A stretch of 32,000 nucleotides of DNA, from positions 1-32,000 of the forward strand of contig NZ_AP014521.1 of NCBI RefSeq assembly GCF_000828815.1. The letters are read 5' to 3'. How positions within the stretch are numbered: the stretch's first letter is position 1; every line of letters begins with the position of its first letter. The notes under the pieces are model-generated. The model saw only the letters and a program-made list of their open reading frames with translations. It had not been told where the DNA came from and did not search any database. The position numbers and the translations under genes are program-made. This document shows positions 15-31,741 of the stretch, one piece after another. The DNA is from Candidatus Tachikawaea gelatinosa. Lineage in GTDB: Bacteria; Pseudomonadota; Gammaproteobacteria; Enterobacterales; Enterobacteriaceae.

Positions 15-1904
15 ATGAATAATACAAAAAATTTTTTTGATGTTATTGTAGTAGGTTGTGGTCATGCTGGAATAGAAGCTTCTATGGCTTCAGCTAGATT
101 AGGAAAAAAAACATTAATATTAACTCAAAAAATGAACACTATTGGTCAAATGTCATGTAATCCTGCAATTGGAGGTATAGGAAAAGGACAACTTGTTAAA
201 GAAATAGATGCACTTGGTGGAGTGATGGCAAACGCTATAGATAAAGCTGGAATTCAATTTAAAAAATTAAATTCTAGTAAGGGTATGGCAGTTAGATCAA
301 CTCGTGCTCAAGCAGATCGTATAATTTATTCAACAACAGTTAAAAATTTTTTAAAAAATCAAAAAAATTTATATATTCAAGAACATGTTGTTGATGATTT
401 AATTATTAAAAATAATAAAGTTATTGGGTTAAAAACACAAAAAAAAATAAAATTTTTTTGTAAATCTATTGTATTAAGTGTAGGAACGTTTTTAAACGGT
501 ATTATCCGTATTGGATTATCTAGTTATCAAGGAGGGCGTGAGAACGATCCATCAGTAATTAAGTTAGCTAACTTTTTAAAAAGTTTACCATTTAAAATTA
601 GTAGATTAAAAACTGGTACTCCACCTCGTCTTGCTAAAGATACTATTAACTTTAATAATTTAGATATACAGCATGGAGACGTTCCTATTCCATTTTTTTC
701 ATTTATTAATCAAAACTTACAACCTTTACCTCAAATACCATGTTGGATTACTCATACTAATCAAATAACACATAAAATTATTAGTGATAATTTTTATAAA
801 AGCCCTGTATATTTAGGATTAATTAAAGGCATTAGCCCGAGATATTGCCCGTCTATTGAAGATAAAGTTATACGTTTTTCTGATAAAAAAAGTCATCAAA
901 TTTTTTTAGAGCCTGAAGGATTAAATAGTAACGTAATATATCCTAATGGTATTTCAACCAGTCTTCCTTTCGATATACAAAAAAAAATAGTTCAATCAAT
1001 AAAAGGATTAGAAAAAACCACAATTATACGTCCAGGCTATGCTATTGAATATGATTTCATTGATCCTCGAGTATTAAAATCGACATTAGAAACAAAAAAC
1101 ATACATGGATTGTTTTTAGCAGGACAAATAAATGGTACAACTGGTTATGAAGAAGCAGCAGCTCAAGGATTAATAGCTGGTTTAAATGCTGCTCGATTTG
1201 CTATGGATAAAGAAGGTTGGTTTCCCCGTAGAGATCAAGCATATATTGGAGTATTAATAGATGATTTATGCACGCTTGGTACAAATGAACCATATCGAAT
1301 GTTTACTGCTAGATCGGAACATCGTTTAATATTAAGGGAAGATAACGCTGATTTAAGATTAACTAAAATTGCTCATTCTCTTGGATTAATAAATGATTAT
1401 CGTTTAAAACTTTTTGAAAAAAAAGTTGAAATAATAGAAAAAGAATCTCAACGATTAAGAGCACTTTGGATTGATCCACAATGTAATAATATAAAAGAAA
1501 TCAATTGTAAGCTTAATATAAAAATAAAAAAAAAAACTAATGCAGAAAACTTACTAAAAAGACCTGATATTGATTATAATCAACTAACTAGTTTGAAAGA
1601 ATTTGGTCCTCCGCTAACTCATTTAGATATGTCAGAACAAGTGGAAATACAAATAAAATATGCAGGATATATTTTAAGACAGCAAAAAGATATAGAACGT
1701 TATAAATTTTATGAAAAAGTTTATCTTCCCCAAAATTTTGATTATAGTAAAATTACAGGATTATCAAATGAAGTTGTTCAAAAATTAAACAATTGCCAAC
1801 CTCAATCTATTGGACAAGCTTCAAGAATTTCCGGTATTACACCAGCTGCTATTTCGATTCTTTTAATTTATCTTAAAAAAAAACAGTTGCTAATTAAAAG
1901 TTAA
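15..1904 (+). CDS. mnmG: tRNA uridine 5-carboxymethylaminomethyl modification enzyme MnmG (GidA)
   Basis: The 629-aa ORF is the same length as E. coli MnmG and aligns along its full length. It has the N-terminal FAD fold VVGCGHAG plus [40 protein letters not shown] and the C-terminal [18 protein letters not shown] motif. Only 14 nt lie upstream inside the window. Confidence 0.97.
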
Positions 1905-2327: not shown

Positions 2328-3455
<1,128 letters not shown>

Positions 3456-3548
3456 AGTTATTTACTACTCTTCTACAAGTAATAGCGTACTTTCTGTTAT
3501 TCAATTTTCATCTAACATTTTATACACTTTTTAAAAAGGCAATATCTC

Positions 3549-4022
3549 ATGAATATTAATGCAACTATTTTAGGTCAATCTATTGCATTTTTTATATTTT
3601 TAATATTTTGTGCAAAATATATATGGCCACCTATTATTAACACAATAGAGAAGCGACAAAAAAATATTATTAAGGAATTTGAATCTATTGCAAATACTAA
3701 AAAAAAGTTAACATTAAAAAAAATTGGTCTTAATGAGACTATTCAAAAATCAAAAGAAGATGCAAAAGATATAATATTAAAAGCACAAATTTTACAACAA
3801 GAAATATTAGAAGAAGCTAAAAAAAAAGCTGTATTGGAGTACCATAGAATAATTAAAAAAGCTCATATAGAAATTAATAATGAAAAATTGAAATTACAAG
3901 AGGAATTGCAAAAAAATACGATATGTTTAATTATTAATAGTGTGAAAAAAATAATGACAAATTATTCTATGGATCATGTAATGAATAATCAAATGATAAA
4001 AAAAACCATTAAAGATTTATAA
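3549..4022 (+). CDS. atpF: F0F1 ATP synthase subunit b
   Basis: The 157-aa product (E. coli 156) starts [28 protein letters not shown], matching the E. coli [28 protein letters not shown]. It has one N-terminal TM helix followed by a long charged helix, and it sits in the expected operon position. Confidence 0.93.
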
Positions 4023-4573
4023 TGGAATTATCAATGAATAACAAAAATGTTACTATCGCACGTTCTTATGCAAAAGCAATTTTCCATTTTTCAAAAGAAC
4101 ACAATCAAATTGAATATTGGCAAGAAATATTAAAACTTTTATCTAATATTTTTTGCGAGAAAGAAATAAAAGAACAATTACAGCACAATATTGTTTCAGA
4201 AAAAAAGATAGCAGAACTGTTAATATTAGTTTTAAACAATAAAATTAATAATTTTATTAAAAATTTTATTAAAATTTTATCAGAGAATAAACGTTTACTA
4301 CTAATTCCATTCATATTAAAAGAATTCAAAAAATTGTATTATCAGTATAAAAATATTTTATATATAAAAGTATTTTCTGCTAATCAATTGAATGAAAAAC
4401 AAATAACTATTTTAAAAAATAGCCTTAAAAAAAAATTTTGTATAAATATTAAATTAAAAAACGAAATAAACAAAAATATAATAGGAGGATTTTTAATAAA
4501 AATAAACGATCTAGTCATTGATTGTAGTATTAAAAATATAATTAATAACTTAAACAAAAAAATGCAATCTTAG
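4022..4573 (+). CDS. atpH: F0F1 ATP synthase subunit delta
   Basis: Its position in the operon fits, and TIARSYAKAIF matches the E. coli TVARPYAKAAF. The C-terminal GGFLIKINDLVIDCSIKN matches AGVIIRAGDMVIDGSVRG. The start overlaps the atpF stop (TAATG). The ATG at 4034 is an alternative start that fits the E. coli N-terminal length better. Confidence 0.9.
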   Translation: MELSMNNKNVTIARSYAKAIFHFSKEHNQIEYWQEILKLLSNIFCEKEIKEQLQHNIVSEKKIAELLILVLNNKINNFIKNFIKILSENKRLLLIPFILKEFKKLYYQYKNILYIKVFSANQLNEKQITILKNSLKKKFCINIKLKNEINKNIIGGFLIKINDLVIDCSIKNIINNLNKKMQS

Positions 4574-4594
4574 TCTTAAAGGAAAAAATCATAT

Positions 4595-6154
4595 ATGCAA
4601 CTAAACTCTACTGAAATTAGCAATTTAATTAAACAGAGAATTGCTGAATTCAATTGTTTTAAAGAAACGTATTCAGAAGGAGTTGTTACTGCAATTAGTG
4701 ATGGAATTATTCGTATTTATGGTTTGTTTGATGTTATGCAAGGTGAAATGATTGTTTTAGAGAATAATCAATACGCAGTTGCTTTAAATTTAGAACGTGA
4801 TTCAGTAGGTGCTGTAGTTATGGGTTCTTTTTATGGAATTACTGAAGGTATGAAAGTAAGATGCACTGGTCGTGTTCTTGAAGTTCCTGTAGGAAAAAGT
4901 TTGCTGGGTAGAGTAGTTAATGCTTTAGGTGAACCAATTGATGGATGTGGAAAAATAAAAAATTCATCCTTTTTACCAATTGAAAGAAATGCACCTGGAG
5001 TTATTGATCGAGAACCAATTAATGAACCATTACAAACAGGTTACAAATCTATAGATGCAATGATTCCTATTGGTCGCGGACAAAGAGAATTAATTATTGG
5101 TGATCGTCAAACAGGAAAAACTACAATCGCTATTGATACAATTATTAATCAAAAAAATTCATCTATTAAGTGCATTTATGTAGCTATTGGACAAAAAATT
5201 TCTACAATTACCAATGTAGTGAAAAAATTAGAAGAACATGATGCTTTAAATCATACTATAATTGTTGTAGCTACTGCTTCTGAATCAGCAATTTTACAAT
5301 ATTTAGCACCTTATTCAGGATGTTCTATGGGAGAGTATTTTCGAGACATAGGTGAAGATGCATTAATTATCTATGATGATTTATCTAAACAAGCAATTGC
5401 CTATCGTCAAATTTCTTTATTACTACGTAGACCTCCTGGTCGAGAAGCTTTTCCCGGAGATATTTTTTATTTGCATTCCAGATTACTAGAACGAGCATCA
5501 AGAGTAAACAAAGAATATGTAAATAATTTTAATGATGGAAATATTATAAATAAAACTGGATCATTAACCGCTTTACCAATTATAGAAACCCAAGCAGGTG
5601 ATGTTTCTGCGTTTATTCCAACTAATGTAATTTCGATTACAGATGGACAAATATTTTTAGAATCAAATTTATTTAATTCTGGAATCCGCCCAGCAGTAAA
5701 CCCAGGTATTTCAGTTTCTAGAGTAGGTAGTGCAGCACAAACTGAAATAATAAAGAAATTATCTAGTGGAATTCGTACTGCGCTTGCTCAATATCGTGAA
5801 TTAGAATCTTTTGCACAATTTGCATCAGATTTAGATGAAGTTACTTTAAAACAGTTAACATATGGTCAAAAAATCACCGAATTACTAAAACAAAAACAAT
5901 ATTCAACAATGTCTGTTGCTGAACAAAGCTTATTACTATTTGCTGCTGAAAATAATCATTTAGATAATGTAAAGGTTTCAAATATTAGTCTTTTTGAAAA
6001 CGAAGTTATCAATTATGCAAATTTAAACCATAAAGAATTTATGCAAGAAATTAATGAAAATTTAAAATATACAGAAAAAGTTAAAAAAGGATTTCAAAAA
6101 ATTTTTAATATTTTTAAAGAAACTATTTTTTTTAAAAATTTAAATGAATGTTAA
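4595..6154 (+). CDS. atpA: F0F1 ATP synthase subunit alpha
   Basis: It aligns along its full length with E. coli AtpA and has the Walker A motif GDRQTGKT, plus [27 protein letters not shown] and ITDGQIFLE. Confidence 0.97.
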
Positions 6155-6172
6155 AAATGTAAGAGCAATAAT

Positions 6173-8486
<2,314 letters not shown>

Positions 8487-8519
8487 AAAACAAAAATAAC
8501 TAAAAAAATAAGAGTTATT

Positions 8520-8936
8520 ATGAACTATTGTTTAAATATAGTAAGTGCAGAAAAACAAATTTTTTTGGGATTAGTAAAAAAGATTCAAGTTTCCGGAACC
8601 GAAGGAAATTTAGGTATTTATCCTAGACATTCCCCTTTATTAACTACTATACAACCAGGAATGGTTTTTTTAGTTAAAGAATCAGAAGAAAAAGAATATA
8701 TTTATATTTCTGGTGGGATATTGGAAGTTCAACCTAAAAATGTAATAATTTTAGCGGATACTGCTATTCGAGGTGAGGAACTAGATGAACAACGCGTTTT
8801 AAAGGCTAAAAATATAGCAGAAAAAAATATAAAACTTAAAAATAATGATATAAATTATACAAAAGCCGTAATACAACTTGCAAAAGAAATAGCGAAACTA
8901 CGTGTTATTGAATTAACAAAAAAATTAAGGCAATAA
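8520..8936 (+). CDS. atpC: F0F1 ATP synthase subunit epsilon
   Basis: The 138-aa product (E. coli 139) is the last gene of the operon. [22 protein letters not shown] and GGILEVQP match AtpC. Confidence 0.93.
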
Positions 8937-8988: not shown

Positions 8989-10359
8989 ATGTCTGATAGA
9001 AAGATAATTGTCTTAATACTTGCTGCAGGAAATAGCAACCGTATGAATTCTGATTTATCTAAAGTTTTACATAATTTTTCAGGTAAACCATTAATTCAAT
9101 ATGTATTAGACGCAGCAAAATCAATAAATCCGTATATAATATATTTAATACATAATAAAAATAATGAAAAATTGTTAAAAAATTTATTATCTTATTCTAA
9201 GTTATATTGGATTCTTCAAAAGAATAATTTAGGTACTGCAAATGCAGTTAATATGGTATGTCCTTATTTTAAAGATAAGGAAGAAGTTTTAATTCTTTAT
9301 GGTGATGTCCCACTTATTTCTCAAAAAACTTTAAAAAAATTAATAAAATTTAAAAAAAATAACGATCTTGTAATTATAACAAAATATCTAAAAAAAAATA
9401 ATGATTATGGACGAATTTTACGAAAAAATTCAAAAGTAGTTAAAATTATTGAATCTAAAAATGCAACTAAAGAGCAGCTATCTATTAGTGAAGTTTATAC
9501 TGGTATATTAATAGCTAATTCTGCAGATTTAAAACGTTGGATTCCAAATGTTAAAAGAGATCATATAAATAATGAATATCTTTTAACTGATATTATTCAT
9601 TTTGCATATCAGGAAAATAAAAAAATTGCTGTTATTCATCCTCAATTTATTGAAGAAACAGATGGTATCAATAATCAATATGAATTGAAAAAACTTGAAA
9701 AAATTTATCAAAAAAAAAGAATTAAAAAACTTTTAATTGATGGAGTTATACTTAACGATCCTGATCATTTTTATTTAAAAGGAGAAATGATATATGGAAA
9801 AAATTTAGAAATAGATACAAATGTTAAATTAAATGGTAAAGTTATTTTAGGTAAAAATGTAACTATTTCATCGGGATGTATTATTTCGAATAGTACAATA
9901 GGTGATAATTGTCAAATAAAGCCATTTTCAATTATTGAAGATACAATAGTTTCTTCTTTTTGTATTATTGGTCCTTTTGCGCATTTACATTCTAACAATA
10001 TAATTAATTCTAATTCTTATATTGGTAATTTTGTTGAAATGAAAGAAGTAACTTTTGGTGATAATTCAAAAACTAAACATCTTTCGTATGTAGGTAATGC
10101 TTCAATAGGGAAAAACGTAAATATTGGAGCTGGAACAATCACATGCAATTTTGATGGAAAAAACAAACATCCTACAACAATTGGAAATAATGTTTTTATT
10201 GGTTCTAATACAGAAATTATTGCTCCACTTGTTATTGAAGATAATGCAATAATAGCAGCTGGTACCACTGTTAAAAAAAATGTTAAAGAAAAGGAATTGG
10301 TATACAACAAAAAAAAACAAATTCATATATCTAATTGGAAAAATATAAAAAAATCTTAA
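8989..10359 (+). CDS. glmU: Bifunctional UDP-N-acetylglucosamine pyrophosphorylase / glucosamine-1-phosphate N-acetyltransferase
   Basis: The 456-aa product is the same length as E. coli GlmU. It has the N-terminal nucleotidyltransferase motif LAAGNSNRM (LAAGxGTRM), YGDVPLI, and a C-terminal left-handed beta-helix with hexapeptide repeats. Synteny atpC-glmU-glmS matches E. coli. Confidence 0.93.
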   Translation: MSDRKIIVLILAAGNSNRMNSDLSKVLHNFSGKPLIQYVLDAAKSINPYIIYLIHNKNNEKLLKNLLSYSKLYWILQKNNLGTANAVNMVCPYFKDKEEVLILYGDVPLISQKTLKKLIKFKKNNDLVIITKYLKKNNDYGRILRKNSKVVKIIESKNATKEQLSISEVYTGILIANSADLKRWIPNVKRDHINNEYLLTDIIHFAYQENKKIAVIHPQFIEETDGINNQYELKKLEKIYQKKRIKKLLIDGVILNDPDHFYLKGEMIYGKNLEIDTNVKLNGKVILGKNVTISSGCIISNSTIGDNCQIKPFSIIEDTIVSSFCIIGPFAHLHSNNIINSNSYIGNFVEMKEVTFGDNSKTKHLSYVGNASIGKNVNIGAGTITCNFDGKNKHPTTIGNNVFIGSNTEIIAPLVIEDNAIIAAGTTVKKNVKEKELVYNKKKQIHISNWKNIKKS

Positions 10360-10397: not shown

Positions 10398-12236
10398 ATG
10401 TGTGGAATTATAGGTATATTTTCAAAAAAAGACGTTGTTTATAAATTATTAGAAGGACTAAAACGTTTATCTTATAGAGGTTATGATTCAGCTGGATTAG
10501 TTGTTATTAAAGAAAAAGGGATTTTTACACGTTTAGCTCGTGCAGGAAAAATAGAAAATTTAATAAATTTAGTAAAAAATAGCAATTTTCCAGCAGGAGC
10601 TATTGGAATTGCACATACAAGATGGGCTACACATGGAAAACCGTCTGAACAAAATGCACATCCTCATATTTCACAAAATATTATTGTAGCTCACAATGGT
10701 ATTGTAGAAAATTATGAAGTTTTAAAAGAAAAATTAATAAAAAATAAATACGTGTTTACTTCTGAAACTGATACTGAAGTAATTACACATTTAATACATT
10801 TTGAACAAAAAAATGGAGGAAACTTAAAAGAAATAGTTTTACGCGTTATTAATCAAATAGTAGGAACATATAGTTTAACAGTGATGGATCTGTTAAATCC
10901 TACAGTATTAGTAGGTGTTTGTTTAGGAAATCCTTTAGTTATTGGTATAGGAAAAGAAGAAAACTTTATTGCTTCAGATCAAATAGCTTTATTTCCATTT
11001 ACAAATAAATTTATATATTTAGAGTACAATGATATTGTAGAAATAACACATTCTCGTATCACAATTTTTAATGAAAATAATGAAATTGTTAATAGACCTG
11101 AAATAGTTCAAAAAAATCAAGATGTATATCAAAATAAAGGAAAATATCGTTATTACATGAAAAAAGAAATCCATGATCAACCATATGTTATTACAGAAAC
11201 TATTAATTATTATTTAAAAAATAAACAAGTTAATATGAGAAATTTAGAAAATAATAATATTTTAAATACGGTAAAAAAAATTCAGATAATAGCATGCGGC
11301 AGTTCTTATAATTCTGGTATGATTGCACGTCATTGGTGTGAATCTTTAGCTAATATTTTTTGTAATGTTGAATATGCTTCTGAATTTCGTTATAAAAAAA
11401 ATATTTTAATAGATAAAGATAGTTTATTTATATTTTTATCTCAATCAGGAGAAACAGCAGATACATTGCAATCTTTAAATTTATTGAAAAAAAAACATAA
11501 AAAAATAATATCATTATCAATTTGTAATGTTGAAAATTCATCACTAGTACGTGCATCTGATATTTCTTTAATTACAAAAGCAGGACATGAAATTAGTGTT
11601 GCTTCTACTAAAGCTTTTACTACTCAATTAATTGTACTTTTTTTATTAATTATTAGAATTGGTGTACTAAACGGTAAAATTTCTCAACAATCGGAAAAAC
11701 AACTAATTTTTGAATTAAAAAATTTACCTCAAAATATAAATAAAATTTTTCATCAAAAAGATTCAATAAAATTTTTAGCTAATAAGCTCTATAAAAAAAA
11801 ACATATCTTATTTATTGGTAGAGGAAATCAATATCCAATTGCTATAGAAGGTGCGTTAAAAATAAAAGAAATCACTTACATACATGCAGAAGGATATGCA
11901 GCAGGTGAATTAAAGCATGGTCCTCTAGCTTTGATTGATCCAGAAATTCCTGTAATAGCTTTATTATCTAAAAATAATCAAATAGAAAAATTAAAGTCTA
12001 ACATTGAAGAAATATGTGCTAGAGACGGTGTAATATATATATTCGCTGATGAAGAAATTAATTTTATAAAAAACAACAAGAATGTTCATGTAATTTCTCT
12101 TCCTAAAACTTCTGAAGAAATTGCTCCTATTTTATATGTGATACCTTTACAACTCCTATCATATTATATTGCTTTAATAAAAGGAAACGACATTGATCAA
12201 CCAAGAAATCTTGCAAAATCAGTTACAGTAGAATAA
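10398..12236 (+). CDS. glmS: Glutamine--fructose-6-phosphate aminotransferase
   Basis: It has the N-terminal nucleophile MCGI, HTRWATHG, two SIS domains (SQSGETADT) and the canonical C-terminus LAKSVTVE. Length is 612 aa against 609 in E. coli. Confidence 0.97.
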   Translation: MCGIIGIFSKKDVVYKLLEGLKRLSYRGYDSAGLVVIKEKGIFTRLARAGKIENLINLVKNSNFPAGAIGIAHTRWATHGKPSEQNAHPHISQNIIVAHNGIVENYEVLKEKLIKNKYVFTSETDTEVITHLIHFEQKNGGNLKEIVLRVINQIVGTYSLTVMDLLNPTVLVGVCLGNPLVIGIGKEENFIASDQIALFPFTNKFIYLEYNDIVEITHSRITIFNENNEIVNRPEIVQKNQDVYQNKGKYRYYMKKEIHDQPYVITETINYYLKNKQVNMRNLENNNILNTVKKIQIIACGSSYNSGMIARHWCESLANIFCNVEYASEFRYKKNILIDKDSLFIFLSQSGETADTLQSLNLLKKKHKKIISLSICNVENSSLVRASDISLITKAGHEISVASTKAFTTQLIVLFLLIIRIGVLNGKISQQSEKQLIFELKNLPQNINKIFHQKDSIKFLANKLYKKKHILFIGRGNQYPIAIEGALKIKEITYIHAEGYAAGELKHGPLALIDPEIPVIALLSKNNQIEKLKSNIEEICARDGVIYIFADEEINFIKNNKNVHVISLPKTSEEIAPILYVIPLQLLSYYIALIKGNDIDQPRNLAKSVTVE

Positions 12237-12246
12237 TATTTGATCA

Positions 12247-13617
12247 CTATTTTCCTATACAAAAACTATTGAAAATATCTGTAAGAATTTCATCGCGTGA
12301 TATATGTTTTCCAATAATTTCATTTAATAAATTTTCTGATAAACGAAGATCTTCTGCTATTAATTCATAATAATTATATTGACTATTATTCTTTGCTTTT
12401 ATTATTTCGTTAGAAGCTTTTTTAAGTAAGTTTAAATGACGCTCTCTAACAAAAAAATTACAATTAGTATTTTTAAACAAAATGTTTTTTTTTAGATATT
12501 GATATAAAATTTTTATACCTTTTCCTGTATATGTAGATAAACGTATAACATATCGGTTGTTAATTTTTATGATTTCTTCTTTTTCTTGAGTAAGATCAAT
12601 TTTATTATGTATAATCGTTATTGGTACTTTGTTAAATATCACTGAAAATTCAGGACAAATTTTTTCTATTTGATAATTTGGTTTAGTAGTATAAGCATCA
12701 ATTACAAAAAAAATATGATCAGCTGTTTTGATCTCATTACAAGCTTTTTTAATACCAATTTTTTCAATTTCATTTTTACTTAAAAAATTTAATCCTGCAG
12801 TATCAACTATAGATACTTGTTTTTCATCTATATAAATATTTTCACGTAAAACGTCTCTAGTTGTACCAGAAATTTTGCTTACAATAGCTGCTTCATATTT
12901 TAATAATGTATTAAACAAACTAGATTTACCAGCATTCGGAAAACCTGCAATAACGATTTTCGTGTTTGCTGTTGTTAAATGATTTTCAGAAGCTTTTTTA
13001 TAAAGATTAATCAATTTTTTATGAATACTGTTTATTTGGTTATGAATATTTTGATCGCTTAAATGGCTGATATCTTCTTCTGGGAAATTAATAATTGATT
13101 CCAAATTAATACGTAATTTTTTAATTAAATGAATTATCTCTTTTAAAAAATTAGAAAAAAAACCTTGAAGAGAGTTTACAGCTGCACGTATTTCTTGTAT
13201 TGAACTTGCGTTTATAAAATCAATAATCGATTCTGCTTGAGTTAAATCTAATTTGTTATTAAGAAACGCACGTTTACTAAATTCTCCAGGTTGAGCTATT
13301 CTAATATTAGGTATAGAAATAATTTCTTTTAATAATATTTTTAAAGCTAAAGGACTACCATGTCCTTGTAATTCTAATAAATCTTCTCCAGTAAAAGAAT
13401 TAGGTTTTTTAAACCATATAGCAATACCTTTGTCAATAACAATACCTTTAATATTTTTAAACGATGAATAATGTGCATAACGAGCTTTAGGAATATTTCC
13501 TAATATTTTTTGAGCAACATATGAAGATAAAGCACCAGATACTCTTATAATACCTATCCCAGATCTACCAATATTTGTAGAAATCGCTGCAATAGTATCA
13601 TTCTTTTCATTATTCAT
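12247..13617 (-). CDS. mnmE: tRNA modification GTPase MnmE (TrmE/ThdF)
   Basis: The 456-aa product has DTIAAISTNIGRSGIGIIRVSG at the N-terminus, the G-domain motifs GFPNAGKSSLFN, DTAG and NKID, and the C-terminal FCIGK motif. Confidence 0.96.
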   Translation of the reverse strand: MNNEKNDTIAAISTNIGRSGIGIIRVSGALSSYVAQKILGNIPKARYAHYSSFKNIKGIVIDKGIAIWFKKPNSFTGEDLLELQGHGSPLALKILLKEIISIPNIRIAQPGEFSKRAFLNNKLDLTQAESIIDFINASSIQEIRAAVNSLQGFFSNFLKEIIHLIKKLRINLESIINFPEEDISHLSDQNIHNQINSIHKKLINLYKKASENHLTTANTKIVIAGFPNAGKSSLFNTLLKYEAAIVSKISGTTRDVLRENIYIDEKQVSIVDTAGLNFLSKNEIEKIGIKKACNEIKTADHIFFVIDAYTTKPNYQIEKICPEFSVIFNKVPITIIHNKIDLTQEKEEIIKINNRYVIRLSTYTGKGIKILYQYLKKNILFKNTNCNFFVRERHLNLLKKASNEIIKAKNNSQYNYYELIAEDLRLSENLLNEIIGKHISRDEILTDIFNSFCIGK

Positions 13618-13649: not shown

Positions 13650-15281
13650 TTAGATTTTTTGCTGATAGATTCCTTTTTTCTCTAAATTTTTATAGATTAT
13701 TTGTTGTTGTAATATAGTAAAAAAATTACTAATTATATAGTATAGTACTAAACCTGCTGGAAACCATAAAAAAAAGATAATAAAAACTACTGGGATAAAA
13801 TTCATAATCTTTTTTTGCATAGGATCAGATGAATTATTCGGTGATATTTTTTGAATTACAAACATAGTAATCCCCATCAAAATAGGAAGAACATAATAAG
13901 GATCTTTTTCTGAAAGATCGTGAATCCAAAAAATAAAATGTGCGTGACGTAACTCTATTGAATCCATTAACATATAATAAAGCGCAAGGAAAATAGGCAT
14001 CTGAATAATTAATGGTAAGCAACCTCCTAAAGGATTAACTTTTTCAGTTTTATATAAATGCATAATTTCTTGACTCATTTTTTGTTTATCATCACAAAAA
14101 CGATCACGAATTTTTTGCATTTTAGGTTGCAACATTCTCATTTTTGCCATAGAAACATATTGAGTTTTAGTTAAAGGATATAAAAGTCCTCGAACTATAA
14201 ATGTTATAATTATAATAGATAATCCCCAGTTTCCAACAAAACTATTGATTAATCTTAATAATTTAAATAATGGTTGTGAAATAAACCATAACCAACCATA
14301 ATCCACAGTTAAATCAAGATTTTTAGCTACTTTAGACATTTTATCTTGAATTTCTGGACCAATCCATAAAGTTGATTTTACTGATTTTTCAGAATTTTGA
14401 GGAATATTTATTATAGATGATCGATATCCTATTGTTACGAAATCTGTTCCCGAATAATTTGTATAAAAATAATTCTTACCTAAAGTATGAGGTATCCAAG
14501 CTGTAGCAAAATATTGTTCTAACATTGCTACCCAACCGTGATTTGTTTGTATATTGAGTTTTTTGTTTTTTATTGTTTCAAATTTGTATTTTTCGTATTT
14601 ATTATTCTCTGTAGAATAAGCAGCACCACGAAAAGTACGTATAGAAAATTTTTTGTTATCACGATTTTTAGGTAAATTTATACTTTGTTTTAATTGACCA
14701 TATATAGAAACTTCTATTGGTTTCTCCGTTAAGTTTTTAATATTATAGACTAAATCTATATCATAATCTCCTCGTTTAAATATAAATGTTTTTTTATAGA
14801 TTATACCTTCTTTATTTTTCCAGATTAGTGGTACACTAATTTTATTTTCATTTTTCTTCATTTCAAATTTATCTTGTTGCACACTATAAGTGGGTCTTTT
14901 ATTTTCTCCATATTTAGGATTATCAGGTCCATTTTTACCGGTAAAACCACTTTGAGCTTGATAAATAAAAAATGGGCTAGTTTCTAATAATGATAAAGGT
15001 TTATTAGAACCTAATTTTTCTTGATAATTGATTAACTTAGCTTCTTCAATATCGCCCCCTTGAGTATTAATTTTTATAGAAAAAACATCAGTATTTACTG
15101 TAATAATTTTTTTATGATCATTGATATAATGAGAATTGATAGTATTATTTTTAATATTGTTGTTTTGAACAAACGGCTGTTTTTTAACAGCAATAATGTG
15201 ATCTTTCTGCCAAGTTTCCCACATAATCAAAGAAATAAAGATAAAAAAAACTAAAAAAAGGTTACGTTTTAAATCCATCAT
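13650..15281 (-). CDS. yidC: Membrane protein insertase YidC
   Basis: It aligns along its full length with E. coli YidC through [56 protein letters not shown] and [21 protein letters not shown]. The second Met (15278) is an equally plausible start. Confidence 0.96.
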
Positions 15282-15302: not shown

Positions 15303-15533
15303 TTATGGTACTGGATCATAGCCACCTAAATTTAGAGGATGACATCTTAATATACGTTTTATAATTAACCAATTGCCTGTAATAATATTTGATTTTTTTA
15401 ATGCTTGTAATGCATATTCAGAACAAGTTGGTTGAAAACGACAATGAGGGCCAAGCATAGGACTAATAATTTTTTTATATAAAAAAATTAAAATAATTTC
15501 TATTTTTTTTATATTTTTTGTAAGTAATACCAC
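15303..15533 (-). CDS. yidD: Membrane protein insertion efficiency factor YidD
   Basis: The 76-aa product carries [19 protein letters not shown]...[17 protein letters not shown], matching E. coli YidD. The annotated start overlaps the 3' end of rnpA by 25 nt, so the exact start is uncertain. Confidence 0.85.
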
Positions 15534-15864: not shown

Positions 15865-16011
15865 TTATTTACAATCTGAAATTGTTAACCGTGTTCTATT
15901 TTTTAAACGACGATTTGATAAAATTTTACGACCGTTTTTTGTTTTCATGCGTATGCGAAAACCATGTGAACGATTACGTTTAATTAAAGATGGTTGAAAA
16001 GTTCGTTTCAT
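15865..16011 (-). CDS. rpmH: 50S ribosomal protein L34
   Basis: [42 protein letters not shown] is the canonical L34 sequence. The track ORF (to 16077) adds 22 non-homologous residues; the internal ATG at 16011 gives the normal product of about 48 aa. Confidence 0.95.
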
Positions 16012-16049
16012 TAAATTTTTATTCCAATGTTGAAAAAATAAATAATTAC

Positions 16050-16077
16050 AGGATACTATCCTGACAATAAATGTCAA
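16050..16077 (-). promoter_or_regulatory. Candidate promoter for rpmH-rnpA
   Basis: On the minus strand, a perfect TTGACA (16077-16072), a 16-nt spacer and TATCCT (16055-16050) lie about 40 nt upstream of the rpmH ATG. The 7-bp palindrome CAGGATA-C-TATCCTG (16049-16063) overlaps the spacer and the -10 element. Confidence 0.3.
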
Positions 16078-16280
16078 TTATCTTATGATATTTAATACAT
16101 AGTATTAAAAATATAATATTATTAGTGTACTTAACATTTATGAAAAGTTTTTGATCTTGATATTTACATATAATATATTTTGATTACTTGTATAAATTTT
16201 TTAATAATTAATAAAGCTTAAAATAAATTTATATAGATTGTACAATGAAATATCAATAATAAAAAAGCTTTTAGATATGT

Positions 16281-17437: not shown

Positions 17438-19870
<2,433 letters not shown>

Positions 19871-20205: not shown

Positions 20206-22479
20206 ATGACCATTGTAAATCATATACTTGGTTTTCCACGTATTGGATTAAATCGCGAACTAAAAAAAGCACAAGAAATTTATTGGAATAATAAGATTTC
20301 AAAAGAGGATTTGTTTTTAGTTGGTTATAAACTTCGAAAACATCATTGGAATTTACAAAAAAAATCTGGTATTGATTTAATATCAGTCGGAGACTTTGCA
20401 TGGTATGATCATGTTTTAACTACTAGCTTAATGTTAGGAAATATTCCTAAACGTTATAAAAATAATGAAAATATTGATATTGATACTATTTTTAAAATAG
20501 GGCGAGGTTTTACTACTAAAGAAGGTCAATCTATTCCAGCATCTGAAATGAAAAAATGGTTTAATACTAATTATCATTATATAGTGCCAGAATTTTATAA
20601 AAATCAAAAATTTGAATTTATTTGGACTCAGTTATTTGATGAAATAGATGAAGCAAAAAAAATTGGATATCGAGTAAAACCAGTTATATTAGGACCATTA
20701 ACTTATCTTTGGTTAGGAAAAATGGTAGGAGAAAAAACAAAATCTGACCGATTATCCTTGCTATCTGAATTAATTCCTGTTTATCAAAAAATTATTTATG
20801 AATTAGAAAAACGTAAAATTGAATGGATACAAATAGATGAACCTATATTAGTTTTAGAACTATCTCAAGATTGGAAAAAATGTTTTAAACAAGTTTATGA
20901 AGCTTTATATAATAAAAATATTAAAATACTAATAACAACTTATTTTGATAGTATCAATCATAATATAGATATTATTAATCAATTGCCTATTCAAGGTTTA
21001 CATGTTGATTTAATTTATGGTAAATATGATATTAATAACCTCAAACAATCAATTCCTGAAAATTGGATTTTATCTTTAGGAATAATAAATGGACGTAATG
21101 TTTGGCGATCTGATTTAATCAAAATTTTTAAAGATTTTTTTCCGATTATCAATAAATATAAAAATATTTGGATTGGACCATCATGTTCATTCTTACATAT
21201 ACCTATTGATATTAATGCAGAAAATAATTTTGATAAAAAAACACAACAATTATTTTCTTTTGCTATACAAAAATGTGAAGAAATTGCATGTTTAAGTCTT
21301 GCTTTAAAAGAAAATAATATAAAATATTTAGAACAATGGGAAAATGTTAGTTTTTTACAAAAATCTTTACATGTTAAAAATAAAAAAATATATGATAGAA
21401 TTGCTAATATTAATATATATGATATAAAACGAAAAAATTCTTATAATATCCGTTCTATCAAACAAAAAAATAAATTAAAGTTACCGTTATTACCGACTAC
21501 AACTATTGGATCTTTCCCTCAAACAACAGAAATAAGAAAAACACGCTTTGATTTTAAAACAAATCAAATTAATAGCGAACAATATAATCATATGATGAAT
21601 AATCATATTAAGAACATTATTAAAAAACAAGAAAAAATTGGATTAGATGTATTAGTTCATGGAGAACCCGAAAGAAATGATATGGTTGAATATTTTAGTG
21701 AAAATTTAGAAGGTTTTTTAATTACAAATAATGGTTGGGTGCAAAGTTATGGTTCAAGATGTGTAAAACCTCCTATTATTATTAGTGATATTTATAGATC
21801 TAAACCTATTACTATTAAATGGACTAATTATGCACAATCTTTAACAAAAAAACCAATAAAAGGTATGTTAACTGGTCCAGTTACTATTCTACTTTGGTCA
21901 TTCCCTCGTGAAGATATTTCCTATGAATTAATTGCAAAACAAATTGCATTAGCATTACGAGATGAAGTAAAAGATTTAGAAAAATCTGGAATTAGCATTA
22001 TTCAAATTGATGAACCTGCATTAAGAGAGGGATTACCTCTTCATAAGTCTGCATGGAAAAATTATTTAATGTGGGCAGTAAATTCCTTTAAATTGAGTGC
22101 TTGTGTAGTTAAAGATACCACTCAAATTCACACGCATATGTGTTATTGTGAATTTAATGACATTATGGAATCAATATCTTTACTAGATGTAGATGTAATT
22201 ACAATTGAAAATTCTCGTTCTAATGAAAATTTATTAAATATTTTTAAAAAAAATAAATACTTTAAAGATATTGGTCCAGGAATTTATGATGTGCATTCTA
22301 TGAATATTCCAAGTGTTATTGATTTTGAACACTGTATTAGCAAAATAACGAAATACATACCAAAAAATCAATTATGGATAAATCCAGATTGTGGTTTAAA
22401 AACAAGAAATTGGAAAGAAACATATATAGCATTAAAAAATATGGTCACTGCAACAAAAAATTTTCGTAAAAAACTTTAA
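20206..22479 (+). CDS. metE: Cobalamin-independent methionine synthase (5-methyltetrahydropteroyltriglutamate--homocysteine methyltransferase)
   Basis: The 757-aa product (E. coli 753) has ILGFPRIG..RELKKA at the N-terminus. The C-terminal domain has TTTIGSFPQT, HGEPERNDMVEYF and the zinc ligands in HTHMCYCEF and NPDCGLKTR. An AAGGA ribosome-binding site precedes the ATG. Confidence 0.96.
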   Translation: MTIVNHILGFPRIGLNRELKKAQEIYWNNKISKEDLFLVGYKLRKHHWNLQKKSGIDLISVGDFAWYDHVLTTSLMLGNIPKRYKNNENIDIDTIFKIGRGFTTKEGQSIPASEMKKWFNTNYHYIVPEFYKNQKFEFIWTQLFDEIDEAKKIGYRVKPVILGPLTYLWLGKMVGEKTKSDRLSLLSELIPVYQKIIYELEKRKIEWIQIDEPILVLELSQDWKKCFKQVYEALYNKNIKILITTYFDSINHNIDIINQLPIQGLHVDLIYGKYDINNLKQSIPENWILSLGIINGRNVWRSDLIKIFKDFFPIINKYKNIWIGPSCSFLHIPIDINAENNFDKKTQQLFSFAIQKCEEIACLSLALKENNIKYLEQWENVSFLQKSLHVKNKKIYDRIANINIYDIKRKNSYNIRSIKQKNKLKLPLLPTTTIGSFPQTTEIRKTRFDFKTNQINSEQYNHMMNNHIKNIIKKQEKIGLDVLVHGEPERNDMVEYFSENLEGFLITNNGWVQSYGSRCVKPPIIISDIYRSKPITIKWTNYAQSLTKKPIKGMLTGPVTILLWSFPREDISYELIAKQIALALRDEVKDLEKSGISIIQIDEPALREGLPLHKSAWKNYLMWAVNSFKLSACVVKDTTQIHTHMCYCEFNDIMESISLLDVDVITIENSRSNENLLNIFKKNKYFKDIGPGIYDVHSMNIPSVIDFEHCISKITKYIPKNQLWINPDCGLKTRNWKETYIALKNMVTATKNFRKKL

Positions 22480-22646: not shown

Positions 22647-24089
22647 ATGAATAAAACATTCATCATATATCCTTTATTAATTTTATTAAGTATTAGTTTG
22701 ACATTAATTTTTTCGTATTTTCGTATTCAGTATTTGAAAAAATATTTTTTTTATAAATATCGTTTTTTAAAAAAAAATGAAAATATCTTCGAAAAGAAAT
22801 ATGATCTTCAAAGAAAATTTTTAGAAAAACAAGAAAAAGAATTGCTAAATTTAAAAAATTGTTTATTACAAAAAGATGAAAAAATACAAGAATTAAAATA
22901 TTGGCGTAAAGAATATGAACAAATATGTCAAAAATTGCAAGAACAAGTAGAAATAAATAATATACAAGAAACTGAATTACGAGAATCTATTAATCATATT
23001 CAAGAAATAAAATTTGATAAAAAAGCACATAAAAATCTATTGTTTGAAAGTGAACAAAGAACAATTAATAAATTTGAAAATATCATAAAAGAAAAATTAG
23101 TGAATAATGATTCTAAAATAGAAGAAAAAAATCAACAAAATTTAAACAATTTTTTTATTCCATTTAAAGAGCAATTAGAAAGTTTTCGTCGTGAAATCAA
23201 CGATAAATTAGGTCAAGATTCTTGTGAACGTAACATATTAAAGTATGAAATAAATCAATTACAGCAATTAAACAGTCAAATCACAAAAGAAACTATTAAT
23301 CTTACTAAAGCTTTAAAAGGAGATATTAAAACACAAGGTAATTGGGGAGAAACTGTTTTAAGTCGCGTTCTTGAATGTTCTGGATTAAGAGAAGGTTATG
23401 AATATGAAAAACAAGTAACTATTCATCTTAAAGATAAAAATCGTATACAACCAGATATTATTGTACGTCTACCTCAAGGTAGAGATGTTGTTATAGATGC
23501 TAAAACAACTCTTATTGCTTACGAAAAATATTTTAACACAGACGATAAGCTAATTCGTGAAAAAGCTCTTCAAGAACACATAAAATCAATTCGTAATCAT
23601 ATTCGATTATTAAGTAGCAAGAATTATCAAAAATCTCCTGGATTAAGATCATTAGATTATGTATTAATGTTTATTTCAATAGAACCAGCGTTTTTATTAG
23701 CCATTAATCATCAACCAGATTTATTAAATGAAGCTTTACAACAAAATGTTATGTTAGTAAGCCCAACTACTTTATTAGTTGCATTAAAAACTATAAATAA
23801 TCTTTGGAAATCAGAATATCAAAACAGGAATTCTCAATTAATTGCTAAGCGTGCATCTCGTCTTTATGACAAAATTCGATTATTTGTTGATGATATTATA
23901 AATATTGGACAAAATATTGATAAAGCACAAAAAAGTTATGAAAATGCTTTAAAAAAACTAATTCAAGGACGAGGAAATCTCATTTCACAAACTGAAAATT
24001 TTAAAAAGTTAGGTGTTGAAATTAAAAGTTCTATTAACCAAAAAATTTTAAATCAAACAGAATTTTGGAAAGAAGATAACTTAAAATGA
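22647..24089 (+). CDS. rmuC: DNA recombination protein RmuC
   Basis: The 480-aa product (E. coli 475) has an N-terminal TM helix, a long coiled coil, and the conserved RmuC core (TQGNWGE, PDIIVRLPQGRDVVIDAKT, DYVLMFI, VMLVSPTTLL). It sits between metE and tatA, as rmuC does in E. coli. Confidence 0.9.
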   Translation: MNKTFIIYPLLILLSISLTLIFSYFRIQYLKKYFFYKYRFLKKNENIFEKKYDLQRKFLEKQEKELLNLKNCLLQKDEKIQELKYWRKEYEQICQKLQEQVEINNIQETELRESINHIQEIKFDKKAHKNLLFESEQRTINKFENIIKEKLVNNDSKIEEKNQQNLNNFFIPFKEQLESFRREINDKLGQDSCERNILKYEINQLQQLNSQITKETINLTKALKGDIKTQGNWGETVLSRVLECSGLREGYEYEKQVTIHLKDKNRIQPDIIVRLPQGRDVVIDAKTTLIAYEKYFNTDDKLIREKALQEHIKSIRNHIRLLSSKNYQKSPGLRSLDYVLMFISIEPAFLLAINHQPDLLNEALQQNVMLVSPTTLLVALKTINNLWKSEYQNRNSQLIAKRASRLYDKIRLFVDDIINIGQNIDKAQKSYENALKKLIQGRGNLISQTENFKKLGVEIKSSINQKILNQTEFWKEDNLK

Positions 24090-24210
24090 TAATTAATAAA
24101 ATATAAAGATTTCTAAAAAAGAAAATTATATTTTTATTATATATAAATGTAAAATTTGTTAGTTATTAAAAAAAATTAATGAAAAATCAATAATAAAATA
24201 GGTGAATTTT

Positions 24211-24441
24211 ATGGGAAAAATTAGTATTGGAAAATTGTTAATTGTTGCTGTTATTATTTTACTTGTGTTTGGTACTAAAAGATTACGTAATCTAGGATCT
24301 GATTTAGGAACATCCATTAAAGATTTTAAAAAAGCAATGCGTGAAGAAGATGTGCAAGATCATAAAAAAAATCATATAAATAAAGAAAATATTAATTATG
24401 ATAAGAATCATATAGAAACAGAAAAAAACAAAATTAATTAA
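24211..24441 (+). CDS. tatA: Twin-arginine translocase subunit TatA
   Basis: [43 protein letters not shown] matches E. coli TatA ([43 protein letters not shown]). The track ORF starts at the GTG at 24202. The ATG at 24211 lies 5 nt after an AGGTGA ribosome-binding site and reproduces the E. coli N-terminus. Confidence 0.92.
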
Positions 24442-24470
24442 CAATAATTATTTTATAAATAGGTATAAAT

Positions 24471-24815
24471 ATGTTTAATATTAGTATTAGTAAAATTTTT
24501 TTAGCTTTATTAATTGGTTTAGTTGTTTTAGGTCCAAAAAAATTTCTTTCTGCTTTTAAATGTATAATATTTTTTTTTAAAAAAATACGTCTTTTACTAA
24601 TTAATACAAGAAATGAGTTTGAAAAATATTCTACAATGCAAGAATTACAAAACAATATAAATCAAATTAGCAATATAAAAAATAATAATATGATATTTAA
24701 TGAACTAATAAATTGTGTTAATGATTTAAAAAAAGAAATCCATTACTTTCATTTAAAAAATAAAAGCTATTTTTCTAACAATACTTATAAAGATGAACAT
24801 AATGTACAAATATAA
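24471..24815 (+). CDS. tatB: Twin-arginine translocase subunit TatB (shortened C-terminus)
   Basis: [24 protein letters not shown] matches the E. coli TatB [24 protein letters not shown]. The product is 114 aa against 171 in E. coli, so the non-essential C-terminal tail is lost or divergent. Confidence 0.85.
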   Translation: [114 protein letters not shown]

Positions 24816-24894
24816 GAACATGAATTTTATAAAACTTTATTAATAAAATATCATTAAAACTTTTAAAAAAGTTTTAAAATAATTTGAATAAAAA

Positions 24895-25614
24895 ATGAGC
24901 TTAAAAACGCAATCTATTATCGATCATTTACTTGAATTAAGAAAACGTATTATTAACTGTTTAATTACAGTTTTATTATTTTTTTTATTTTTAATATGTT
25001 TTTCTAATAATATATATATCATAATTGCTAGTCCTTTGATAAAAAAAATGCCGCCTGGTACAAGTATGATTTCCACTGATCTTTCTGCTCCATTTTTTGT
25101 TCCAGTTAAATTAACAGTTTTTGTATCTTTTTTTTTAAGCGCACCAATTATAATTTATCAATTTTGGCAGTTTATTGCACCTGCTTTATATAATAATGAG
25201 AAAAAAATAGTTTTTCCTATTTTATTTACAAGTATTTGCTTATTTTATATTGGTGTTATTTTTTCATATTTTTTTATTTTACCGTTTTTTTTTCATTTTA
25301 TAATTAATAATATGCCTACAGGAATTAAAATAGCTACTGATATTGAAAAATATCTTGATTTTATTACATCGCTATTTTTAATTTTTGGTAGTATATTTGA
25401 AGTACCTATTGTTATAGTTATATTATGTTGGGCAAAAGTTTTGCATTTAAAAAAACTTAAAAAAAAACGTTCCTATTTTTTTTTAAGTTCATTTATAATT
25501 AGTATCTTCTTAACTCCTCCAGATATTATTTCTCAAACTTTTCTTGCGATTTTCATTTACTTATTATTCGAGTTAGGTATATTATTCGCTTACTTTTTTT
25601 GTAAAAATTGTTAA
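24895..25614 (+). CDS. tatC: Twin-arginine translocase subunit TatC
   Basis: The 239-aa polytopic membrane protein has IDHLLELRKRIINC, ASPLIKKMPPG, FFVPVKLT, FIAPALY and LTPPDIISQT, matching E. coli TatC. Confidence 0.94.
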   Translation: MSLKTQSIIDHLLELRKRIINCLITVLLFFLFLICFSNNIYIIIASPLIKKMPPGTSMISTDLSAPFFVPVKLTVFVSFFLSAPIIIYQFWQFIAPALYNNEKKIVFPILFTSICLFYIGVIFSYFFILPFFFHFIINNMPTGIKIATDIEKYLDFITSLFLIFGSIFEVPIVIVILCWAKVLHLKKLKKKRSYFFLSSFIISIFLTPPDIISQTFLAIFIYLLFELGILFAYFFCKNC

Positions 25615-25876: not shown

Positions 25877-27434
<1,558 letters not shown>

Positions 27435-27444
27435 ACTTTGTTAA

Positions 27445-27473
27445 AAGGTATTCCTGAAAAGTGCTCACAACAA
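27445..27473 (+). promoter_or_regulatory. 3' half of the 16S RNase III processing stem
   Basis: AAGGTATTCCTGAAAAGTGCTCACAACAA is complementary to leader 25766-25793. It contains GTGCTCACA, which is also found at the corresponding site of the E. coli spacer. Confidence 0.6.
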
Positions 27474-27514
27474 ATTATTTAGTAAATATATTAATGAATA
27501 ATCGTTATATATCA

Positions 27515-27558
27515 TAGTCCTCCTTTTATCGTAAAAGGAGGACTACTTTTATTTTATT
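27515..27558 (+). terminator. Perfect 14-bp hairpin plus U-tract inside the 16S-23S spacer (intrinsic-terminator-like or boxB-like)
   Basis: TAGTCCTCCTTTTA (27515-27528), a TCG loop and TAAAAGGAGGACTA (27532-27545) are followed by CTTTTATTTTATT. This is the strongest secondary-structure signal in any non-rRNA segment of the window. The structure is certain; its function is not. Confidence 0.5.
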
Positions 27559-27587
27559 AAAATATATCAGTTATTTTTTTAGTACAC

Positions 27588-27600
27588 GATCTTTAACATT
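27588..27600 (+). promoter_or_regulatory. boxA-like element in the 16S-23S spacer
   Basis: GATCTTTAACATT resembles the E. coli spacer boxA GCTCTTTAAAAAT and the leader boxA GCTCTTTAACAAT. It is located upstream of the 23S processing stem, as in E. coli. Confidence 0.5.
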
Positions 27601-27671
27601 TTTGGCAAATCAAAATATTCAACAAAAAACGCTGTATAGATAAATGTTGAATAGCATACAACATATTAAAA

Positions 27672-27690
27672 AGAAATTTTTGAGTTGTAA
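27672..27690 (+). promoter_or_regulatory. 5' half of the 23S RNase III processing stem
   Basis: AGAAATTTTTGAGTTGTAA plus the first 8 nt of 23S is complementary to 30594-30621 (GCTTAATCTTACAACATCAAAAATTTTT), with one bulge and one mismatch over about 27 bp. Confidence 0.65.
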
Positions 27691-30603
<2,913 letters not shown>

Positions 30604-30621
30604 ACAACATCAAAAATTTTT
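30604..30621 (+). promoter_or_regulatory. 3' half of the 23S RNase III processing stem
   Basis: ACAACATCAAAAATTTTT pairs with 27672-27690 immediately outside the mature 23S ends. Confidence 0.6.
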
Positions 30622-30692
30622 TATGTTATTTTGATTTGCAGAAATGTTGTTCGCTTACTATAAATGATATAGATAAGAATCTATTTATGTTT

Positions 30693-30812
30693 TACTTGGT
30701 AAAAATAGCGTAGTGGTACCACCTGATCCCATTTCGAATTCAGAAGTGAAACACTATGGCGCCGATGGTAGTGTGGGGTCTCCCCATGTGAGAGTAGGAA
30801 TTTGCCAAGTAA
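30693..30812 (+). rRNA. rrf: 5S ribosomal RNA
   Basis: The 120-nt sequence TACTTGGTAAAAATAGCGTAGTGGTACCACCTGATCCCATTTCGAATTCAGAAGTGAAAC...GATGGTAGTGTGGGGTCTCCCCATGTGAGAGTAGGAATTTGCCAAGTAA aligns base for base with E. coli 5S. Helix I shows compensatory changes. Confidence 0.96.
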
Positions 30813-30859: not shown

Positions 30860-31741
30860 ATGAAAAAAAAAAATGACAATATTTTTTTATTAATTGATGG
30901 ATCATTTCATTTATATAGAGCTTATTATTCTTATCCTTTTATGGTTAACACGGAAAAAAAACCTATAGGTGCAATATATGGTTTTATTTATGTACTCAAT
31001 TTTTTAATAAAAAAATATCAACCTATTAATGTAGCTGTTGTTTTTGATCATAAAGGAAAAACATTTAGAAATGAGTTATACGAAAAGTATAAATCACATC
31101 GTTTACCAATGCCTAACGAACTATCTATTCAAATTAAACCCTTACATGATATTATTCAAGCAATGGGTATTCCAATTATTTCTATTCCAGGAGTTGAAGC
31201 AGACGACGTTATTGGCACTATTGCTAAATTAGCTGAATTTCAAAAAAAACCTGTACTAATTAGCACAGCTGATAAGGATATGACTCAATTAGTTTCAAAT
31301 AAAATTAATATATTTAATATTATAAATAAAGAATTAATTGGACCAAAAGAAGTTGAAAAAAAATATGGTATAACCCCTAATTTTATTGTTGATTATTTCG
31401 CATTGATTGGTGATATATCAGATAATATTCCAGGTGTACCTGGAATAGGAAAACAAAGAGCAAAAGATCTTATACAAAAATTTGGTAATATAGAATCTAT
31501 TTATGATAGCATTGAGAAATTTGATATATACAATAAAAATTGTTCTAATTTTGTCTTCAAGCAATTAAAAAATCATAAAAAAATCGCATTCTTATCTTAT
31601 CAATTAGCTAAAATAAAAACAAATGTAGTTATTAAAGATAAGTATAATAATTTTTTTATTCGAAAATGTGATAAAAAGAGGTTATTCTTTTTATTAAAAG
31701 AATTAAATTTTAAAAAAAACGTTATTAACTTTTTAAGTTAA
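30860..31741 (+). CDS. polA: DNA polymerase I reduced to its 5'-3' exonuclease (FEN) domain
   Basis: The 293-aa product aligns with about the first 300 residues of E. coli PolA through LIDGSFHLYRAYY, VVFDHKGKTFRNELYEKYKSHR, GVEADDVIGT, ISTADKDMTQL, GDISDNIPGVPGIGKQRA and LSYQLAKIKT. It then stops. The 3'-5' exo and polymerase domains (about 630 aa) are absent, and engB begins 6 nt after the stop. Confidence 0.93.
   Translation: MKKKNDNIFLLIDGSFHLYRAYYSYPFMVNTEKKPIGAIYGFIYVLNFLIKKYQPINVAVVFDHKGKTFRNELYEKYKSHRLPMPNELSIQIKPLHDIIQAMGIPIISIPGVEADDVIGTIAKLAEFQKKPVLISTADKDMTQLVSNKINIFNIINKELIGPKEVEKKYGITPNFIVDYFALIGDISDNIPGVPGIGKQRAKDLIQKFGNIESIYDSIEKFDIYNKNCSNFVFKQLKNHKKIAFLSYQLAKIKTNVVIKDKYNNFFIRKCDKKRLFFLLKELNFKKNVINFLS

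Follow-up and report, generated by a model that had tools for sequence, protein, structure and literature searches.

dnaA has been cleanly deleted in place from the conserved rpmH-dnaA-dnaN-recF-gyrB cluster of Candidatus Tachikawaea gelatinosa; the slot is empty and the neighbouring genes are intact. The explanation that best accounts for the locus as a whole, to which we assign a probability of roughly 0.85, is that both dnaA and recF were deleted in place, that dnaA is absent from the entire genome and that the chromosome replicates from a fixed, DnaA-independent origin near mnmG. Tachikawaea is an obligate extracellular symbiont of urostylidid stinkbugs that inhabits the crypts of the midgut and is passed on in egg jelly (PMC7926433), and its 0.71 Mb genome has a G+C content of 25.1% and 613 CDS (PMC5822708). 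The stretch of DNA analysed here, referred to as the window, makes up the opening 32 kb of the 708,439-bp chromosome; its coding regions have a G+C content of about 25%.

No dnaA lies between rpmH and dnaN

The features on either side of the slot are the following.

15865 to 16011, minus strand: rpmH (ribosomal protein L34), 48 aa, intact; TIGR01030, 80.5 bits, profile positions 1-44 of 44
16012 to 16280: divergent rpmH-dnaN spacer, 269 bp, 15.6% G+C, occupying the place of dnaA
16281 to 17384, plus strand: dnaN (beta sliding clamp), 367 aa, intact, the product sharing 100% identity with the T. gelatinosa protein; TIGR00663, positions 1-367 of 367, 303 bits
17385 to 17446: dnaN-gyrB gap, 62 bp, from which recF, found here in E. 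coli, has been cleanly deleted
17447 to 19870, plus strand: gyrB, intact; NF011501, 1198 bits

A sequence-only reading of this DNA had described an A/T-rich, non-coding gap of 269 bp between the rpmH start at 16011 and the dnaN start at 16281, with intact genes on both sides and no dnaA pseudogene inside. These coordinates and this description are correct, and both rpmH and dnaN match their equivalog models end to end. No open reading frame of 25 aa or more is contained within 16012-16280, and an Rfam search of the spacer returned no match and no RNA gene. Searching the window and the contigs L004-L007 by tblastn with E. coli DnaA and RecF recovered no remnant of either gene (best E ~4), and nhmmer with a dnaA DNA alignment found no dnaA remnant in the spacer. 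A DnaA profile built from E. coli DnaA and two symbiont DnaAs likewise gave no hmmsearch match, either in the six-frame translations of all sizeable spacers or in the stop-to-stop pieces of the window and of the contig immediately upstream (L006). We regard the rpmH-dnaN spacer as a deletion scar and a presumed bidirectional promoter region.

The chance that dnaA really lies between rpmH and dnaN and was lost from the record through a collapsed or mis-joined contig is practically negligible. The Logan assemblies of DRR014315 and DRR014316, probably made from libraries of one project, each span the rpmH-spacer-dnaN junction with identical sequence, and a 17 kb contig from DRR014315 matches the window at 100% over its full length. 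As two separately assembled read sets agree exactly, the junction is no assembly gap, which is what the sequence-only reading had maintained. Direct repeats that could have caused a collapse were not found in or around the spacer, and recF is missing just as cleanly.

The deletion lies in a block colinear with E. coli

The gene order of the window was established from the open reading frame map and NCBIfam models. Apart from the junction genes listed above, it comprises the following features.

15 to 1904, plus strand: mnmG (gidA), the gene flanking oriC in E. coli
1905 to 2345: mnmG-atpB spacer, 441 bp, 14.5% G+C, where rsmG and atpI stand in E. coli; no DnaA box
2346 to 8936, plus strand: atpBEFHAGDC
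8989 to 10359, plus strand: glmU
10398 to 12236, plus strand: glmS
12247 to 13617, minus strand: mnmE
13650 to 15281, minus strand: yidC
15303 to 15533, minus strand: yidD, a separate intact gene; TIGR00278, 81 bits
15509 to 15862, minus strand: rnpA
20206 to 22479, plus strand: metE
22647 to 24089, plus strand: rmuC
about 24202 to 25614, plus strand: tatABC
25877 to 30810, plus strand: rRNA operon
30860 to 31741, plus strand: truncated polA, of which the 5'-3' exonuclease domain remains (293 aa); matches positions 3-277 of the 889-position Pol I profile

The deposited record begins 14 bp before the mnmG start codon. Because Logan contigs (L006 and L007) continue upstream of this point, the beginning of the window appears to be the start of a deposited circular record. 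rpmH is the first gene of the rpmH-rnpA-yidD-yidC-mnmE block, in which the yidD and rnpA frames overlap by 25 nt (15509-15533), as they do in E. coli. Enterobacterial rRNA operons normally carry tRNA-Glu, or tRNA-Ile and tRNA-Ala, in the 16S-23S spacer; the spacer in the window (27435-27690, 256 bp) is without a tRNA gene, and ARAGORN detected no tRNA anywhere in the 32-kb window.

From mnmG to gyrB, the order mnmG-atp-glmUS-mnmE-yidC-rnpA-rpmH-(dnaA)-dnaN-(recF)-gyrB, with the missing genes in brackets, is colinear with the 84-min region of E. coli. The latter runs gyrB-recF-dnaN-dnaA, then in divergent orientation rpmH-rnpA-yidD-yidC-mnmE and, further on, glmS-glmU-atpC..B-atpI-rsmG-mnmG-oriC-mioC. 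The two differ by deletions only, namely of rsmG, atpI, the genes between glmS and mnmE, dnaA and recF. Given this colinearity, the absences of dnaA and recF are simple deletions.

dnaA is kept between rpmH and dnaN in all four relatives examined: E. coli, a symbiont with 23% G+C (L009), Pantoea sp. Aalb (L012) and P. carbekii (L013). In the last three the gene in the slot encodes a protein of 460-470 aa. Since every relative examined keeps dnaA in this position, its presence is the ancestral state and Tachikawaea carries an in-place deletion. Beyond the T. gelatinosa protein itself, the next-best matches to its DnaN are 48-49% identical, and the two of highest identity are carried by L009 and by Aalb. 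The contigs L009, L010 and L011 (Logan SRR25867713, SRR25867569 and SRR25867714) belong to an enterobacterial symbiont of 22-24% G+C whose DnaN is 49% identical to that of Tachikawaea. The reduced genomes of Aalb, in which the locus has 29% G+C, and of P. carbekii, an extracellular primary symbiont of a stinkbug, share with Tachikawaea the mnmE-yidC-rnpA-rpmH and dnaN-gyrB neighbourhood and have no called recF between dnaN and gyrB. Unlike Tachikawaea, both still have dnaA in its slot next to dnaN, intact and encoding 467-470 aa.

dnaA is very probably absent from the whole genome

The search for DnaA covered the window, about 10 kb upstream of it (L006) and 2 kb downstream (L014), in total about 44 of the 708 kb, and no DnaA match was found; the DnaC encoded on L014 is a paralogue of DnaA and not DnaA itself. 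The claim of a precise gene loss made from the sequence alone therefore stands locally as an empty slot, and its second part, that the gene was not relocated, rests on the roughly 44 kb scanned. We consider a genuine, genome-wide loss of dnaA very probable.

It is unlikely that a functional dnaA has instead moved elsewhere in the 708-kb chromosome, where it would fire a DnaA-dependent origin outside the examined sequence. Such a move gains some room from the search having covered about 6% of the genome, and from the presence of queC-queF upstream of mnmG, which records at least one rearrangement at the origin-proximal end. The region from mnmG to gyrB speaks against it, being strictly colinear with E. 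coli and differing by deletions only, as does the position of dnaA beside dnaN in all four relatives. The deposited record also starts at mnmG, whereas the paper describing the Aschnera genome orients the sequence on dnaA when that gene is present (PMC10841577). A further point against a relocated dnaA is that neither the ancestral oriC site nor the skew minimum, both described below, has a cluster of DnaA boxes.

The canonical oriC next to mnmG is lost or replaced

In E. coli, the spacer between mnmG and mioC is 378 bp long and contains oriC, with 14 GATC sites and four DnaA boxes (at most one mismatch). Tachikawaea instead has queC followed by queF upstream of mnmG, and the gap of only 72 bp between queF and mnmG (L006 9929-10000) has no DnaA box at up to one mismatch and no GATC. 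The canonical oriC next to mnmG is thus lost or replaced, and queC-queF takes the place of the oriC/mioC side.

DnaA boxes with at most one mismatch are absent from the qmcA-queC, queF-mnmG, mnmG-atpB and rpmH-dnaN spacers, each of which has no more than one GATC. The sequence-only reading, which had reported no boxes in the rpmH-dnaN and mnmG-atpB spacers, is borne out in this respect. It had also proposed a genome-wide search for boxes. Run on the window and L006, this search returned counts equal to chance, with 10 boxes in the window against 11.0 ± 3.4 expected, and sites with up to two mismatches did not cluster. Two candidates for relic DnaA boxes, TTTAGATAT beside the dnaN ATG and AGTGGATAT in the queF-mnmG gap, were rejected; with 2-3 mismatches each, they are no denser than expected by chance.

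The lack of boxes in a single spacer is not diagnostic, because the symbiont on L009 has an intact dnaA of 460 aa and yet a rpmH-dnaA spacer (7.6% G+C) without a recognisable DnaA box. Taken by itself, the absence of DnaA boxes is weak evidence. For comparison, Aalb retains in the corresponding spacer a perfect autoregulatory DnaA box, TTATCCACA, which aligns with the E. coli box and which Tachikawaea does not have.

GC skew places a local minimum upstream of mnmG

A cumulative GC-skew analysis had been suggested as a way to locate the origin. We joined the 10 kb upstream Logan sequence (L006) to the window and profiled the resulting 42 kb. The cumulative curve is V-shaped, with its minimum at about 8000-8630 of L006, or 1.4-2.0 kb before the window start, and we place the skew switch some 1.4-2.2 kb upstream of mnmG. 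The outcome is therefore a clear local minimum upstream of mnmG within 42 kb, and not a whole-genome profile. The stretch of the minimum takes in the qmcA-queC spacer and the first part of queC. This spacer separates qmcA (minus strand) and queC (plus strand) divergently at L006 7820-8319, is 500 bp long with 14% G+C (86% A+T) and lies at the left edge of the minimum. Searches for repeats or iterons in it gave only low-identity, A+T-rich matches, and no RNA gene was found at the skew minimum.

Part of the V is a coding-strand effect: the minimum coincides with a switch in gene orientation, and the two effects are confounded. The skew of minus-strand genes is about -0.16 upstream of the minimum against about -0.035 inside the window (mnmE to rpmH). 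Because genes on the same strand differ across the switch point, the skew switch is not purely a coding-strand effect. The local V near mnmG, over the 42 kb profiled, argues for a single fixed initiation site.

The spacer as a presumed promoter region for dnaN

Several elements were recognised in the rpmH-dnaN spacer.

16049 to 16063: perfect palindrome CAGGATAcTATCCTG, 15 bp, the sole G+C-containing element of the spacer
16050 to 16077, minus strand: promoter-like site TTGACA-16-TATCCT facing rpmH; 10 of 12 positions match, by consensus only
16061 to 16089, plus strand: promoter-like site CTGACA-17-TATGAT facing dnaN; 10 of 12 positions match, by consensus only
16218 to 16246, plus strand: promoter-like site TTAAAA-17-TACAAT, 35 bp before the dnaN ATG; 9 of 12 positions match, by consensus only

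A palindrome of this type was produced by only 2 of 5000 shuffles of the spacer. CAGGATAcTATCCTG overlaps the best promoter-like sites in both directions, namely the -10 element of the one facing rpmH and the -35 element of the one facing dnaN, and it may be an operator or an element of the rpmH promoter. MAFFT aligns it with GGATATCC upstream of E. coli rpmH, an alignment without statistical support. The promoter-like sites in the spacer number 9, against 5.6 ± 2.4 in shuffles, and are not clearly more frequent than expected.

Homology of the spacer as a whole to the rpmH-dnaA spacers of the relatives was considered and rejected as evidence on the source of the dnaN promoter. The MAFFT alignment was suggestive, but local-alignment scores against shuffles gave z values of -1.5 to 0.4, whereas the control comparisons of Aalb with P. 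carbekii and with E. coli reached z = 6.0 and z = 7.9, respectively. With no significant similarity in the spacer and promoter-like sites near the shuffle level, the sequence favours neither an inherited nor a new dnaN promoter. The sequence-only reading held that dnaN must have gained a promoter of its own, but this is not a necessary conclusion, as deletion of the dnaA reading frame would leave the old dnaA promoter region in front of dnaN. Whatever its history, the 269-bp A+T-rich promoter region would now serve rpmH-rnpA-yidD-yidC-mnmE in one direction and dnaN-gyrB in the other.

Proposed initiation without DnaA

We propose that replication would still start at one fixed position close to mnmG, in or next to the qmcA-queC spacer (500 bp, 86% A+T). 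This spacer may open without DnaA through melting driven by transcription or supercoiling, after which DnaB would be loaded by a primosome-type loader (DnaT, DnaC). Melting at the divergent spacer followed by primosome loading is our best guess at the mechanism, drawn from gene content and base composition. Such a mechanism would be the symbiont's own and not host-supplied, because the bacterium lives in the gut lumen.

A dnaT-dnaC operon is present just to the right of the window and near yihA (L014 1963-3218, equivalent to about 32794-34049 in window coordinates); yihA/engB itself is convergent with polA and lies 6 bp after it. DnaC is full length, with a score of 373 bits that exceeds the curated cut-off; DnaT reaches 160.6 bits, below its 201-bit cut-off, and its open reading frame is truncated by the contig end. 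To our knowledge, DnaT has been described only as part of the PriA-type primosome, which in E. coli loads DnaB without DnaA. Buchnera, which retains dnaA, also keeps DnaT and DnaC.

The same genes bear on a different proposal, that after the loss of dnaA no fixed origin remains and replication starts either at dispersed R- or D-loops (resembling cSDR or iSDR and using RecA and PriA) or with the help of host factors, as proposed for Blochmannia and Wigglesworthia. Retention of DnaT and DnaC fits such a scheme, and E. coli lacking RNase HI, Topo I, Dam, RecG or RecD can grow without DnaA. The idea of host control is also still current (PMC8611330).

We nevertheless judge dispersed or host-driven initiation improbable in Tachikawaea. 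The skew shows a clear local switch adjoining the ancestral origin position, and the symbiont is extracellular, so that it is not evident how host proteins would enter its cytoplasm. Its polA lacks the polymerase domain, the product matching Pfam 5_3_exonuc_N and 5_3_exonuc only, without a Klenow part. The polymerase activity of polA is needed for R-loop-primed stable DNA replication (cSDR) in E. coli, and the domain that would provide this activity for the extension of R-loop RNA is absent from the Tachikawaea protein. The polA of Buchnera is likewise reduced to the 5'-3' exonuclease.

Taken one step further, the preferred reading of a fixed origin near mnmG would make Tachikawaea an extracellular bacterium without dnaA that keeps a skew-defined origin by mnmG and initiates there autonomously, site-specifically and independently of DnaA, not under host control. 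We put this forward tentatively, at rather less than even odds.

Discussion

Tachikawaea fits the class of dnaA-less symbionts in every feature tested except its extracellular residence. Its dnaA slot is empty, its genome is that of an insect mutualist, reduced and A+T-rich, and the origin placed by skew has no box cluster. The two traits of a canonical gammaproteobacterial replicon, a dnaA in the rpmH-dnaN cluster and a boxed oriC by mnmG, are both missing. Residence inside host cells (bacteriocytes) is common to the known dnaA-less members and not shared by Tachikawaea, and it is a trait of those members, not a strict definition of the class.

The likening to Wigglesworthia and Blochmannia in the sequence-only reading was apt. 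The Blochmannia symbionts of Camponotus (B. floridanus, B. pennsylvanicus, B. vafer and B. chromaiodes) are obligate enterobacterial symbionts with very A+T-rich genomes of about 0.7-0.8 Mb that lack dnaA, as Tachikawaea does (PMC4389277). They also resemble it in an origin placed by skew next to mnmG, in the lack of diagnostic DnaA boxes and in a record that starts at mnmG (PMC4389277). Blochmannia is intracellular, whereas Tachikawaea inhabits the gut lumen and the egg jelly. Decay of the gene can be followed in Blochmannia, where B. turneri has an intact dnaA and B. obliquus a pseudogene (PMC4389277); Tachikawaea, by contrast, has no sequenced sister and no dnaA remnant in the slot.

Both sequenced species of Wigglesworthia glossinidia share with Tachikawaea a genome of about 0.7 Mb, with 22-25% G+C, and the absence of dnaA (PMC3280448). 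Their origin has been assigned, putatively, to the A+T-rich sequence upstream of gidA/mnmG, where no diagnostic DnaA boxes are present (PMC3280448). Wigglesworthia has no clear GC skew, in contrast to the clear local switch of Tachikawaea, and it is mainly intracellular in bacteriocytes, with an additional population in the milk-gland lumen. Baumannia cicadellinicola also lacks dnaA, but it is intracellular, with 33% G+C and a weak skew (PMC1472245). The authors of that genome noted that no dnaA-less symbiont in their comparison had complete routes based on priA plus recA, and proposed that recBCD may play a part (PMC1472245). Buchnera aphidicola is comparable to Tachikawaea in genome size and A+T bias, but has kept both dnaA and an oriC, the latter with two DnaA boxes (as cited in PMC4389277).

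The loss is more widespread than the "few" insect endosymbionts to which the sequence-only reading had confined it. Blattabacterium, Carsonella and Sulcia are listed in addition to Baumannia (PMC4389277), and dnaA has also been lost from several symbiotic and a few free-living cyanobacteria (PMC7198777). An open-access literature search returned no paper naming both Tachikawaea and dnaA.

Loss of dnaA is therefore already known in insect symbionts, the locus is an ordinary deletion scar and the Tachikawaea genome has been public since 2014; the unusual point is life outside host cells. How dnaA-less bacteria initiate replication has been a standing question since the Wigglesworthia genome of 2002. 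The favoured idea of host control, still cited (PMC8611330), was developed for symbionts that live inside cells. Should dnaA indeed be absent from the whole Tachikawaea genome, a bacterium outside host cells would be replicating without DnaA, which would point to an intrinsic mechanism. An autonomous origin, if true, would undercut host control as the explanation for the loss of dnaA. Tachikawaea would then also be a tractable system in which to study such initiation, as its cells can be collected from the egg jelly and the crypts and their marker frequencies mapped.
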